Of a stretch of DNA of 64,000 bases, positions 33,964 to 37,718 are shown piece after piece (the first letter of the stretch is position 1; every line of letters begins with the position of its first letter). The notes under the pieces were generated by a model. The model was not told where the DNA came from. It was given only the letters and a program-made list of their open reading frames with translations, and did no database searches. The translations under genes and the position numbers were made by a program. Source of the DNA: Verrucomicrobiia bacterium (GTDB lineage: Bacteria; Verrucomicrobiota; Verrucomicrobiia; Limisphaerales; UBA1319); the NCBI GenBank assembly GCA_963664225.1, contig OY760937.1:1760001-1824000 (forward strand). Reading direction: 5' to 3'.

Positions 33964-34905
33964 TTAATTTGAGAGTGCAAAATCTGGGTTTTTGAGGATT
34001 TGGTTCATCAGGACAATGAGTTTGCGCATGACGGCGGTGAGCGCGACTTTGGCGGGCTTGCCCGCCAATCGGAGTCGTTCGTAGAACTCCTTGAGTTGGC
34101 GATTGCAGCGCGCAGCCACCAGGGCGGCCATGTAGAGGGCACGTCTAACGGCGGCTCTTCCGCCACCGATGGAGCGGCGGCCTTGCCACTGGCCGCTTTC
34201 TCGAGGATGTGGAGCCAGTCCGGCCAAGGCGGCGGCCTGCCCCCGATTGAGCGTGCCCAACTCGGGCAGCTCAGCCAAAACCCCCAAGGCGGTAATCGCG
34301 CCCACCCCGGTGATGGCTTCGAGTTTTTTTGCGCGTTCATCCAGTTCTGTGGTTTTCTGGCGCAGCGCTTTGAGTTGGGTCTCGATATGCTCCAGATCCC
34401 GTTCCAATCGACGCAGCAGGCTCTGGGCCTGGCGGCGCAACTTGGGCAGCGTGAGGCGTTCGATCTGATGGCGCTGGCTAATAAGCAGATCAAGGATCTG
34501 AGTGCGGCGGCGAACCAGTTCGGTCAACTGCTCCTCCACCTCGGAACGCGCGGGCGTGGGTTTGGGGGCGAAGGCCTGCCCATAGGCGGAGAGGACGGCG
34601 GCATCTATACGGTCGGTTTTGGCCCGTTGTCCCTGGGCGCGGGCGAAATGCCGGACGCGGGCGGGATTGATGATGCTGACAGGAATGCTGGCATGATGGA
34701 GGGCGTCAGCCACCTCACGCTCGTAGCCGCCGGTGGCTTCACAGATGACGTGAGCGCCGGGATGCTGCGCCAGGAGTTTGACGAGCTGGCGATGACCGGC
34801 GGCGGTATTGGGCAGATGGTGGGAACGACCGGCCAGTTGGAGATCAAGACTCAGCTTGGCAATATCCAAACCAGCGTAGATAGTGGTCATAGTGTTCTGG
34901 CTCAT
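33964..34905 (-). CDS. IS110 transposase
   Basis: GLDIAK, CEATGGYE, KTDRIDA, GLAP..RESG and VRRALYM motifs; clearly homologous to copy A but diverged. Confidence 0.96.
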   Translation of the reverse strand: MSQNTMTTIYAGLDIAKLSLDLQLAGRSHHLPNTAAGHRQLVKLLAQHPGAHVICEATGGYEREVADALHHASIPVSIINPARVRHFARAQGQRAKTDRIDAAVLSAYGQAFAPKPTPARSEVEEQLTELVRRRTQILDLLISQRHQIERLTLPKLRRQAQSLLRRLERDLEHIETQLKALRQKTTELDERAKKLEAITGVGAITALGVLAELPELGTLNRGQAAALAGLAPHPRESGQWQGRRSIGGGRAAVRRALYMAALVAARCNRQLKEFYERLRLAGKPAKVALTAVMRKLIVLMNQILKNPDFALSN

Positions 34906-35072
34906 TCTTGTAAATACGAGCAGGCCTTGGTGGGCCGCTCAAGCAACGGTTCGAGTTTAGGACACAGGCACGAACGGCTCTGGCTCCTCGCGCATTTGGT
35001 TAAAAACCAATGCAAGAAGGAAACGAGCTCGTCCGCGCCACTGTCCTGCCGCCTGCAGGCGGCAGGACAGTT
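34906..35072 (-). ncRNA. Predicted bridge RNA of IS110 copy B
   Basis: 5' palindrome at 35041-35070; LTG 35015-35023; RTG 34984-34989; LDG 34942-34950 (9/9 to donor); RDG 34907-34912 (6/6). Ends approximate. Confidence 0.83.
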
Positions 35073-35238
35073 CCATCTATTCCGTCTTTTCAAACAAAAC
35101 AAGAATAGATGGAAAATCAGATACAAGGAAGGAAGGAAACCGCTAATGGGAGGGAATTGACGCTAATAGGAAGGGAATGGGGATTTGGAAAATGATATTT
35201 AGCCTGATTTACAGTTTCTCTGCGAGGCGATGGCCGAG

Positions 35239-35258
35239 CCGGCTGAAAGCCGGGACTC
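35239..35258 (+). repeat. REP-like hairpin forming the 5' exon of the group II intron
   Basis: CCGGCT-GAA-AGCCGG then GACTC; continues as CATAC at 35879 after intron removal. Confidence 0.75.
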
Positions 35259-35878
35259 GTGTGTCTGGCAGGTATTGGATCTATTGGGATGAAAGGAGCC
35301 CAACGGGGGCGGTGACGCCAACCGTAGCGGTAGGCCAGGTTCGATCCGCGAGGGTCGGGCGCGAAAGGGCCGAGAGCAAAGGCGCGACCGTAGGAACACG
35401 AACGGGCAGTGAGGCCGGGTGCGTGGGTTAGCTGGCGAGTAACGGCGAAACCCAAAGGTCATCCAAACGCATCAGGTAGAGCCCGGCGGCGCGCGCCGAC
35501 AGAGTCAATACCGACCCAGAGAGATCTGTCCCGTGAGAGCGGGACAGAAGTCAGCAGAGGCCATAGTAGTGATGAGGCCCGGTGAAAGCCGGGAGGAGCG
35601 AAGGGCCGAAGGAACAAACGGAGCCAACCAAGGCGTTGGACATGAGGACGAGTGATGGAATGAAGCAACAGGACGCAACAATTACGGTTACCATCCTGGC
35701 ACTGGCAAACGGCGGGCCCAACGCTGGAAGCGCCCAACCCGTCGAAGCATTCCGGGGTCACATGTCTGCACGACTGGGAAGGAAGAACTCTGAATGTTCC
35801 AACCGCCGGATGCGAGAAAACCGCACGTCCGGTGGTGTGGGAGGGTGCCGGGGCGAAATCCCTGGCACCCGACCCGAT
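35259..35878 (+). mobile_element. ORF-less class IIC group II intron (620 nt)
   Basis: 5' GTGTG; DII/DIII AGAAGTCAGCAGAGGCCATAGTA..GAAGGGCCGAA; short DV AACCGCCGGATGCG..CGCACGTCCGGTGGT with CGC triad; DVI GGGTGCCGGGG..CCCTGGCACCC; 3' end ACCCGAT. No RT ORF. Confidence 0.9.
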
Positions 35879-36059
35879 CATACTCCGGAACGCCGGGCCG
35901 GGGGACCCGGCCTACAAGTTGATGCGCCGGATAATGCGATGGACTGGTCGGATGAAGCTGGGAGACCAAACCAAGGAAAATACGGCAGAGTTTAGGTCAG
36001 GGTTTCCACCGCCCCTTAAATTGCCTTTCGCAATGGTCCTGATGCGGTATTCTTGAGGC

Positions 36060-37718
36060 GTGTCTGATACGCAAACAAAACAACACCCGGTGCGGATCGG
36101 TTTGATCTCGCTGGGTTGCGCAAAGAATCTGGTGGATTCGGAAGTCATGCTCGGCTCGCTGGCGCGGGATGGCATGGAGATCACCAATGACGCCTCGCTG
36201 GCCGATGTCGTCATTGTGAACACCTGTTCGTTCATCGACTCCGCCCAGGAAGAGAGCGTGGATACCGTGCTCGCCGCATCCCAAACGCGGGATGCGGAAT
36301 ACCCGCATCAGGCCGTGATCGTGGCCGGTTGCCTGCCGCAGCGTTTTCAAAAAGAACTGCCCGGCCTGTTGCCCGAGGTGGACGCCTTCATGGGTCTGGA
36401 CCAGGTGCCGCAGGTGGCCCAAATCGTGCGCGAAGCGCTGGCCCACCGGTCCGCGCGACTGGCTGCGCCAGCGGAACGCAAGACACGTTCAAAGAAGCTC
36501 ATACAAAAGCATTTGGAGGCATTGGACAAGGCGCATCCTGAAACCGAAGACCGCCCCATGCGGGCGGGCGCCACTTCCACGAAAACCAGCAAAGTCAGTT
36601 TGCCCGAACCGGTGAATCTGGTCAGTCCCCGTTCGGTCTATGTGCCGGATTACAATACCCCACGGTTCCGACTGACGCCGCGGCATCTGGCGTATGTGAA
36701 GATCGCCGAGGGCTGCAATCATCCGTGCAGTTTCTGCATCATTCCGCGCATTCGCGGATCGCACCGCAGCCGTGTGCAATCGGATATTGTGGCCGAGGCA
36801 CGCCAGTTGATTGCCTCGGGCGTGCGGGAGCTGAACCTGATTTCGCAGGATACCACCTATTACGGTCTGGATTTGCGGCCCGGACGCGATGGTTCCATCT
36901 CCGCCCCGGAAAAATTCACCGCCGCGAACCTCTCGCTTCCTTCCGGCTCGTCCACCCTCCCGACCTTACTGCGGGAATTAAACGGCATCGAGGGCGATTT
37001 CTGGATCCGGCTCCTCTACACCCATCCGGCGCATTGGACCCCGGAATTAATTGAAACCATCGCGGCCTGCGAAAAGGTGGCGCGGTATGTGGATATGCCC
37101 CTGCAGCATATTCATCCGGTGATGCTTGAACGGATGCGGCGCGAAACCACCCGCCAGTATATTCTCGATCTGATCGAGAAAATCCGGGCCGGAGTTCCGG
37201 GCATTGCGCTGAGAACGACGTTCATCGTCGGTTTCCCGGGCGAAACGTCGGAGGCCTTCCAGATGCTTCTGGACTTCATTCGTTCAGCGCGTTTCGAGCG
37301 GTTGGGGGTGTTTGCCTATTCGCAGGAAGATGGGACGCGCGCCTCGAAAATGGAGGGGCAGATTCCCGTTTCGGTTAAAAAGCAACGTCACCAGCAGGCC
37401 ATGGCCGCGCAATTGGAGGTGGCCCGCACGGTGTCTGAATCGTTCGTCAACCGCACCATCCGCGTGCTGGTGGAGGACGAGGCCAGCGCGAAAGAGTTAC
37501 AGCAGGCCCGGGTGCAAAGCTGGGAACATGGCCTGGTCCGGGGCAAGGACTACCATGAAAGCCAGCTCAAAGGGCTTTATCTGGTGGCGCGCGGCGATGC
37601 GGACGCGCCGGACATTGACGGCCGGGTCTATGTGCGTGGCAAGCTGCCCATGGGCGAATTTGCCCAGGTAAAAATAATCGGCCACACCGATTACGATCTC
37701 ATTGCCGAACCGGCCTGA
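36060..37718 (+). CDS. rimO: Ribosomal protein S12 methylthiotransferase RimO
   Basis: SLGCAKNLVDSE, NTCSFI, GCL, YVKIAEGCNHPCSFCIIP and DAPDIDG motifs. Confidence 0.96.
   Translation: MSDTQTKQHPVRIGLISLGCAKNLVDSEVMLGSLARDGMEITNDASLADVVIVNTCSFIDSAQEESVDTVLAASQTRDAEYPHQAVIVAGCLPQRFQKELPGLLPEVDAFMGLDQVPQVAQIVREALAHRSARLAAPAERKTRSKKLIQKHLEALDKAHPETEDRPMRAGATSTKTSKVSLPEPVNLVSPRSVYVPDYNTPRFRLTPRHLAYVKIAEGCNHPCSFCIIPRIRGSHRSRVQSDIVAEARQLIASGVRELNLISQDTTYYGLDLRPGRDGSISAPEKFTAANLSLPSGSSTLPTLLRELNGIEGDFWIRLLYTHPAHWTPELIETIAACEKVARYVDMPLQHIHPVMLERMRRETTRQYILDLIEKIRAGVPGIALRTTFIVGFPGETSEAFQMLLDFIRSARFERLGVFAYSQEDGTRASKMEGQIPVSVKKQRHQQAMAAQLEVARTVSESFVNRTIRVLVEDEASAKELQQARVQSWEHGLVRGKDYHESQLKGLYLVARGDADAPDIDGRVYVRGKLPMGEFAQVKIIGHTDYDLIAEPA

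Follow-up and report, generated by a model that had tools for sequence, protein, structure and literature searches.

How does an intron that encodes no protein come to sit at one exact base behind a small repeated hairpin, and what brought it there? The question is raised by a 64,000-nucleotide stretch from a Verrucomicrobiia bacterium (assembly GCA_963664225.1, contig OY760937.1, positions 1,760,001 to 1,824,000 of the forward strand; hereafter the window). In this stretch, an earlier note made from the sequence alone had described a group IIC intron without an open reading frame (ORF), inserted into a hairpin resembling a repetitive extragenic palindrome (REP), and had proposed a non-autonomous lineage mobilised by a reverse transcriptase (RT) in trans. 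Our analysis leads us to a similar answer, which we hold with good though not full confidence: window positions 35259-35878 are an RT-less IIC intron that lands after G+C-rich repeat hairpins followed by CTC and is probably served in trans by the RT of a full-length sibling elsewhere in the genome, referred to here as FL.

The element is a complete group II intron ribozyme of 620 nt on the forward strand (genome 1795259-1795878). It opens with GTGTG at 35259 and finishes with ACCCGAT at 35878, after which the 3' exon starts with CATAC at 35879, so that both the GUGYG 5' terminus and the AY 3' terminus of group IIC are present. Searching the whole window against Rfam at gathering thresholds returned two matches only, both within the intron and both over the full model: RF02001 (group-II-D1D4-3, model positions 1-170) at 35342-35510 with 84.1 bits (cut-off 32), and RF00029 (Intron_gpII, 1-77) at 35801-35878 with 44.7 bits (cut-off 40). 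In the RF00029 alignment of domain V, CCGC stands opposite the consensus GAGC, which gives a CGC triad. A domain V of ~34 nt with CGC instead of AGC marks group IIC. The minimum-free-energy (MFE) fold of the 620 nt has six top-level domains (z = -4.53 against 20 shuffles), and the earlier concern that domains I to III might not fold does not apply. Domain IV spans 190 nt, as had been estimated, leaving a compact ribozyme of about 440 nt outside it. We found no Pfam match at E <= 0.01 among the four longest ORFs over the element, and tblastn with the RT of FL found nothing at this locus. The class-C RT/maturase without endonuclease domain that is typical of group IIC is absent from the window copy and present in the sibling; the window copy is an ORF-less derivative of a IIC intron. 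Its IIC membership, claimed in the earlier note, is borne out by the ends, the domain V triad, the small ribozyme, a target made of a stem-loop and a 4-nt intron-binding site 1 (IBS1, paired by exon-binding site 1, EBS1), and a sibling RT that is closest to the GsI-IIC RT. The features of the locus, in window coordinates, are as follows.

35181-35258, forward strand: 5' half of a ~130-nt repeat unit (type A) split by the intron (nhmmer profile, model positions 2-79; alignment with other units).
35239-35253, forward strand: target hairpin CCGGCTGAAAGCCGG, ending 5 nt short of the insertion point, then G (sequence).
35255-35258, forward strand: IBS1 ACTC, the last four bases of the 5' exon (complementary to EBS1 GAGU).
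35259-35878, forward strand: group IIC intron without ORF, 620 nt (Rfam, fold, copies, no RT domain).
35264-35520, forward strand: domain I (MFE fold; RF02001 over 35342-35510).
35437-35440, forward strand: EBS1 GAGU, in the 8-nt loop of hairpin 35431-35446 (covariation with exon bases).
35521-35552, forward strand: domain II (MFE fold; hairpin retained in the relatives' consensus fold).
35559-35607, forward strand: domain III (MFE fold and consensus fold).
35611-35800, forward strand: domain IV, 190 nt, pre-ORF leader only, with the RT ORF wholly absent (MFE fold; positional homologue of FL 358-535).
35802-35836, forward strand: domain V with the CGC catalytic triad (RF00029 alignment, fold).
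35838-35876, forward strand: domain VI; G-A on its 3' side is unpaired, this A standing 7 nt ahead of the 3' end (RF00029 alignment, fold).
35879-35929, forward strand: 3' half of the type-A unit, its first base C being the candidate IBS3 (nhmmer model positions 80-130; C in 4/4 copies).
35896-35912 (with TAC to 35915): second hairpin in the type-A 3' half, then TAC; the minus-strand reading is GTAG plus palindrome (sequence).

An internal hairpin, CCCGGUGAAAGCCGGG (35579-35594), was considered as a mimic of the type-A target and set aside: it is the tip of domain III and variable among relatives, and the resemblance is probably coincidental. The exact boundaries of the intron are confirmed because empty paralogous sites show the rejoined junction. 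Eighteen unoccupied type-A sites read ...CCGGCT(G/A)AAGCCGGGACTC|CA(T/A)(A/G)C, and excising 35259-35878 gives ...GACTC|CATAC, exactly the junction found in 12 of them. The exon motif is thus not single-copy, an outcome that would have spoken against the earlier proposal; the genome has 20 strict type-A sites, 18 of them empty. Contigs assembled from four public sequencing runs are short and break at repeats: none spans 35259-35878 or an empty site, and one contig of one run shows a 130-nt skip (35415-35546).

A search of the organism's single 5.78-Mb contig with the intron DNA gave seven matches. Three are full-length 620-nt copies, namely A in the window (1795259-1795878, forward), B (3175532-3176151, forward) and C (1236926-1237545, reverse). 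Two further matches together form FL, one 1879-nt element at genome 2134364-2136242 (forward), and the last two are short fragments of domains V and VI at 5031161-5031249 and 3429273-3429331. Copies B and C are identical and copy A differs from both at 2/620 positions (99.7-100% alike). Since the flanks differ between all four sites beyond the repeat unit and, in detail, inside the repeat as well, the four copies are separate insertions. FL carries an ORF of 416 aa (FL nt 536-1786) with RVT_1 and GIIM domains only and no endonuclease domain; its RT scores 404 bits on TIGR04416 (cut-off 300), and its closest solved structure is the GsI-IIC RT (6ar1, E 2.8e-144). Querying the genome with this RT by tblastn gave 24 matches at E <= 1e-5, one of which is FL; the other 23 are only 32-35% identical and belong to other intron families. 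Because of this gap, and because RF02001 finds only copies A, B, C and FL in the whole genome, there is only one cognate RT for the RT-less copies. The search for siblings and an RT-bearing parent that the earlier note had recommended turned up sibling copies, one of them RT-bearing and parent-like, and its ORF-less, non-autonomous lineage takes the form of three copies with 0-2 differences in 620 nt, different flanks and one cognate RT gene. Group II introns in general are unusually numerous in this genome: RF00029 has 33 matches, among them a family of 19 copies with identical scores, whose RTs are each 32% identical to that of FL, and another family of 4 copies.

What fixes the insertion point to the base? 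The sequence GAGU (35437-35440) lies in an 8-nt hairpin loop at a place where the RF02001 consensus has a run of A. To compare relatives, a profile built from alignment columns 1-215 was used to locate their 5' ends, the four loop bases in the position of GAGU were set against the last four exon bases, and Watson-Crick or G-U combinations were counted as pairs. Among 51 intron/site pairs, 29 have 4/4 pairs, 19 have 3/4, one has 2/4 and two have 1/4. The 38 distinct combinations, which include 26 different EBS1 sequences (UGGA/UCCA, GACC/GGUC, UAGC/GCUA, CAAA/UUUG and AUUG/CAAU are examples of EBS1/IBS1), pair at 129 of 152 positions; shuffling yields a mean of 67.4 +/- 5.7 paired positions and 0/2000 shuffles reach 129. 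This covariation across relatives identifies the loop at 35437-35440 as EBS1 and gives substance to the GAGT-ACTC complementarity pointed out earlier. At copies B and FL the exon ends in GCTC, with its G pairing to the U of GAGU as a wobble, and both exon variants, ACUC and GCUC, are explained because both pair with GAGU.

All four copies follow a G+C-rich hairpin plus N(A/G)CTC | C, the stem ending 4-5 nt before the site, and the first base of the 3' exon is C in each case. The sites of A and C lie in type-A units and read ...CCGGCTGAA(A)GCCGG GACTC | CATAC..., and those of B and FL lie in units of a second family, type B, and read ...GTAA GCCGGTC AGGA GACCGGC GCTC | CGAAG.... A T-tract after the hairpin occurs at none of the four sites; GACTCCATAC or GCGCTCCGAAG follows the stems. 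For the window this agrees with the earlier description, in that CCGGCTGAAAGCCGG at 35239-35253 ends 5 nt before the splice site and has no T-tract. The strict type-A motif is occupied at 2 of its 20 genomic sites and the strict type-B motif at 2 of 63.

The two repeat families differ in organisation. Type A is a dispersed unit of ~130 nt with 38 profile matches (~36 units), two of which are the halves split by the window intron; type-A units also occur in locally duplicated blocks. Type B is an 85-bp unit (76 bp in one array) that forms head-to-tail arrays of up to 18 units with 95% identity, and a profile search finds 97 units in 21 clusters. Its short palindromic hairpin, present in many apparently extragenic copies, has a 7-bp stem, GCCGGTC/GACCGGC, its 85-bp period is not a multiple of 3, and arrays end upstream of clpP-like and ileS-like starts. 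An Rfam search of 78 kb surrounding the arrays and the remaining copies assigned neither type A nor type B to a family. The 85-bp unit was not found in 40 related genomes, which are mostly fragmented assemblies where repeats often fail to assemble. Type-B units surround a gene for a REP-associated tyrosine transposase (RAYT). This 275-aa ORF scores 98.9 bits on NF047646 (cut-off 80), the only above-cut-off match in the genome, and has one type-B unit 33 nt past its stop and a five-unit array starting 30 nt upstream of its start, all in the same orientation and hence direct, not inverted, repeats. Type B behaves as a REP/RAYT family, despite the direct repeats and the GTAA (or CTAA) that its units carry before the stem. 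Type A is REP-like in form and multiplicity, with no transposase assignable to it: among 12 Y1-transposase-like genes, a single one lies within 3 kb of a type-A unit, which it has on one side only, and the repeats flanking this gene are direct repeats of another kind. The proposal of a REP-like target is supported, with one qualification. The hairpin is a repeated one (20 type-A and 63 type-B strict sites) and type-B arrays enclose a RAYT gene, but the link to the transposase does not extend to type A.

Several further observations concern the repeats of this genome. Type-B arrays are found at genome 3271750-3273277, 1989452-1990469, 3241760-3242606, 3292301-3293059 and 1978588-1979272 (loci L008-L012), and REPs arranged in such direct tandem arrays seem unusual. 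At genome 3202090-3203067, an IS200-like Y1 transposase gene is flanked by a ~110-nt direct repeat (96% and 91% identical pieces) that is unrelated to types A and B and contains palindromes of yet another G+C-rich family; this family is also found just before the intron fragment at 5031161-5031249. An element of ~80 nt ending ...GAAGAATTTTGTCCTGCACC (for example at genome 1990460-1990540, 3176152-3176230 and 2592740-2592820), whose core GAATTTTGTC has 103 occurrences over both strands, adjoins the ends of type-B arrays, other repeats and sequences that look like 3' ends from another intron family; it probably represents the terminus of a miniature inverted-repeat transposable element (MITE) or an insertion sequence.

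Could the hairpins simply be the transcription terminators of this organism, their repetition incidental and the element an ordinary terminator-homing IIC intron? Insertion after terminator stem-loops is the classical habit of IIC introns, as passages of PMC4424553 and PMC1702495 describe, and relatives with more divergent ribozymes, in genomes G009 and G005, do sit after textbook terminators (hairpin plus TTTT). Sorting the relatives' sites by RT identity to FL separates two layouts, at a threshold of 57% that was chosen after the data had been seen, at the natural gap between 58.3% and 53.5%. Below it (19 sites, many from Bacillota), 15/19 are T-rich in the classical terminator layout, and the hairpin lies 5-16 nt from the site in the T-rich ones. 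At or above it (27 sites from Verrucomicrobiota, Acidobacteriota and a few others), 0/27 have at least 4 T in the last 8 exon bases, and the hairpin ends 0-7 nt before the site. On a Verrucomicrobiaceae contig (L033), for instance, the intron follows AAAGCCGGTCACAGACCGGCGCTC, a type-B-like hairpin. A Bryobacterales genome (G041) has four introns after variants of GACCYCAA..GRGGTC NNCGCTA, a motif with 50 genomic occurrences against 0 in the reversed control; two of its copies stand just downstream of a RAYT-like ORF (57.8 bits, short of the cut-off, 80), and an intron is inserted at one of these two. Targeting of hairpins without a T-tract is thus a habit of the clade and not a one-off. That sibling introns might sit after ordinary terminators, which the earlier note had named as evidence against itself, is found for the more distant relatives elsewhere and for none of the copies in this genome.

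The sites in this genome likewise argue against terminators. A T-tract is present at 0/4 sites, and a scan for consensus terminators calls no terminator-like site at 35239-35258. The type-B hairpin, up to 18 times in 85-bp tandem arrays and around a RAYT gene, ill fits a terminator. Copies A and B stand upstream of co-oriented genes, a UPF0004/radical-SAM/TRAM methylthiotransferase-type gene at 36060-37718 for A and an ileS-like gene for B, and have opposite-strand rather than co-oriented ORFs before them, so that there would be nothing to terminate and a terminator is not expected. Finally, EBS1 is GAGU and not A-rich. We consider terminator homing improbable as an account of these four copies.

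How did the RT-less form arise? Compared with FL, it is identical at 349/352 positions in domains I to III (99.1%) and at 83/84 in domains V and VI, while the 178-nt middle is only 57% identical (115 of 201 columns in the alignment, which scores 16 where shuffles average 0 +/- 5.1). When five close relatives are added to the alignment, this middle proves to be the positional homologue of the pre-ORF leader of domain IV (FL genome 2134721-2134898); the ORF itself is lacking, from around the start codon almost up to domain V. Leader helices are retained through paired changes, from CGGG...CCCG in FL to CAGG...CCUG and from GCGGU...ACCGC to GCGCU...AGCGC. Another candidate origin for the 178 nt, a relic of the RT N-terminus, was rejected: tblastn with its peptide finds no RT, and the alignment shows the homology to the leader. 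The ORF-less form is a mosaic and not a simple deletion of the resident full-length copy, and divergence so unevenly distributed suggests that intron lineages recombined at the boundaries of domain IV. A contig of one public run (X4) has the same domains I to III joined at ~35611 to yet another leader. Such sequence comparisons suggest module swapping at the boundary between domains III and IV; with a ribozyme 99% identical between the forms and a leader 57% identical yet kept in structure, domain IV would behave as a swappable module. Loss of the ORF is recurrent in the group, since a relative in genome G007 lost it by a different route, an in-frame deletion that keeps roughly the first nine and last nine codons. 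Smaller derivatives were seen as well: in genome G005 (contig C15, ~693-1019), a ~327-nt form runs from the domain I core almost directly into domains V and VI and follows a classical terminator, and in G007 (contig C28, ~1450-1554) a ~105-nt relic has the first 52 nt joined to the 3' half of domain V plus domain VI.

The copies might instead have spread as DNA, by segmental duplication or by hitch-hiking in a repeat unit moved by a Y1 transposase. They do lie inside mobile-looking repeat units, in a genome with the RAYT gene and 8 further Y1_Tnp matches, and the type-A units occur in duplicated blocks as mentioned above. Within the repeat unit, however, the flanks of A and C, and likewise those of B and FL, differ in loop length and in upstream and downstream sequence; the same intron is found in two different repeat families; and each junction falls exactly on the base expected from EBS1 pairing. 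We judge such spread slightly less probable than terminator homing. An immobile relic, or at most a splicing-only intron that merely persists, is the least probable of the alternatives: the missing ORF, the loss of retromobility ascribed to bacterial ORF-less introns in PMC4424553 and the existence of truncated relics of this lineage (genome 5031161-5031249 and 3429273-3429331) would fit it, but three copies with 0-2 differences occupy unrelated sites, all six domains are intact with a ribozyme ~99% identical to FL, and paired changes have kept the leader helices.

We therefore return to an RT-less intron that is probably served by its sibling and lands behind repeat hairpins. The DNA target would most likely be found in single-stranded form, as by other IIC introns, through two cues: a short stem-loop ending 4-5 nt before the insertion point, and the 4-bp pairing of EBS1 (GAGU) with the last exon bases (A/G)CUC, together with C as the first base of the 3' exon. 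Because EBS1 of this lineage is G-rich instead of A-rich, the intron would land after a G+C-rich hairpin plus CTC and not after the hairpin-plus-U-tract of terminators. Suitable sites in the genome would be supplied mainly by the two dispersed repeat families, one of them the RAYT-associated REP family. For reverse splicing into DNA and for cDNA synthesis, and probably also to splice efficiently, the element would need the 416-aa RT/maturase of FL in trans. We infer that this RT serves the RT-less copies because their ribozyme is 99% identical to that of FL, the helices of the domain IV leader are conserved and the genome has no other cognate RT. The spread of the copies, intergenic and near-identical at different repeat sites, points to recent mobility.

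Several points weigh against this reading or narrow it. The genome has 257 perfect sites of the form hairpin, 5 nt and (A/G)CTC|C, of which 174 lie outside both repeat families, and none of these 174 is occupied; a preference for the repeats over other sites is weakly supported, as it rests on four insertions ((83/257)^4, or ~0.01), and may simply reflect how abundant type-A and type-B sites are. Canonical REPs have a conserved GTAG tetranucleotide next to the palindrome, and type B has GTAA before its stem. The window copy's own family, type A, is the one that is not RAYT-linked. Among the relatives, the threshold that separates the two target habits is post hoc, and two EBS1/IBS1 combinations (GAGC/TCAA and ACAA/TCCG) pair at only 1/4 positions and one at 2/4. 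The domain IV leader is only 57% identical to that of FL, so that the main binding site of the RT may differ and cognate recognition is not assured. Splicing of the RNA, action of the RT in trans and the origin of the copies by retrohoming are steps that we infer from the genomic patterns.

A broader scenario can be offered tentatively, at a confidence that falls a little short of an even chance: a IIC subclade of Verrucomicrobiota and Acidobacteriota may have switched from terminators to REP-type hairpins, the substrates of RAYTs, by re-tuning EBS1, with RT-less mini-introns spreading in the manner of MITEs on a single sibling RT. If true, this would be a parasitism of three layers, intron on repeat on genome, in which intron and RAYT both exploit the same single-stranded DNA hairpins. 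It would also show that a change in one loop, EBS1, can redirect a IIC intron. With three near-identical RT-less copies at different sites and one sibling RT, the genome lends itself naturally to testing mobilisation in trans, and a 620-nt ribozyme with a separable RT and a target of one small hairpin plus four bases is a compact system for mechanistic and engineering work.

A few observations around the element stand apart from these questions. The window contains an IS110-family transposase gene (DEDD_Tnp_IS110 and Transposase_20) at 33964-34905 on the minus strand, and ~135 nt upstream of its start, at 35040-35071, there is a perfect 32-nt palindrome, ACTGTCCTGCCGCCTGCAGGCGGCAGGACAGT. Contig depth spikes at this palindrome in all four public runs, and it is probably repeated. 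The cumulative GC skew of the whole contig rises near-monotonically with a plateau at ~1.2-3.6 Mb and has no clear origin/terminus pair; relating the orientation of introns and repeats to replication through this curve gave no result, there being no clear minimum/maximum pair on it.

How does the element compare with known systems? A review by Zimmerly and Semper (PMC4424553) lists three target habits for bacterial group II introns, namely homing sites, terminators and attC sites, and describes bacterial ORF-less introns as rare, usually found alongside a related intron that bears an intron-encoded protein, and mostly immobile. A lineage landing in REP-type hairpins would add a fourth safe haven to these three. 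Toor et al. 2006 (PMC1702495) already state that IIC introns are located after terminator motifs "or other inverted repeats" and that IBS1 and the stem-loop serve to recognise the 5' exon. A table of Tobes and Pareja (PMC1525189) gives the group II intron of Pseudomonas putida KT2440 as REP-associated in 2/9 copies. Apart from this table entry, a search of the mostly open literature gave no paper on a IIC lineage homing into REP/RAYT repeats, or on an ORF-less IIC intron across such repeats. The mechanism follows the known IIC scheme; new here are the kind of target, an EBS1 that has been re-tuned, an RT-less copy that has spread recently and the domain IV mosaic.

Among the closest parallels are the terminator-homing IIC introns B.h.I1 of Bacillus halodurans and GsI-IIC of Geobacillus stearothermophilus. 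Our lineage shares with them a compact ribozyme that has GUGYG...AY ends and a domain V with a CGC triad, an RT/maturase (in FL) without endonuclease domain that is closest to the GsI-IIC RT (6ar1), and a target composed of a stem-loop, a 3-4-bp IBS1-EBS1 pairing and IBS3 (described in PMC1702495), for which C is the candidate here. It differs from them in that EBS1 is GAGU and not A-rich, no T-tract follows the hairpin, whose end lies 4-5 nt from the insertion point, the sites belong to dispersed or tandem repeats, one family of them RAYT-associated, and the window copy has no ORF. The IIC-attC introns of integrons offer a precedent for retargeting, as a IIC lineage that moved from terminators to recombinogenic palindromes that fold in single strands (according to passages of PMC3001079 and PMC4424553). 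Unlike attC sites, the units here are 85-bp tandem or ~130-nt dispersed repeats, with no cassettes between the 85-bp units as judged by eye, no search aimed at attC or IntI having been made; and the enzyme linked to them is a Y1 (HUH) REP-associated transposase instead of an integron integrase. Cyanobacterial ORF-less introns such as those in dnaN of Trichodesmium resemble the present case in having RT-less copies beside a close RT-bearing intron in the same genome (PMC4424553 and PMC12584367). Those introns are described as lying within genes and as splicing-only, whereas the copies described here are IIC introns, intergenic and near-identical, at different repeat sites. Lastly, insertion sequences and the P. 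putida KT2440 group II intron at REPs (PMC1525189) are likewise mobile elements with landing sites in REPs. Unlike the KT2440 intron, the lineage described here has 4/4 copies in repeat hairpins, at a fixed base position that is explained by EBS1 pairing, and its habit is also seen in relatives from another phylum, as in the Bryobacterales genome G041.

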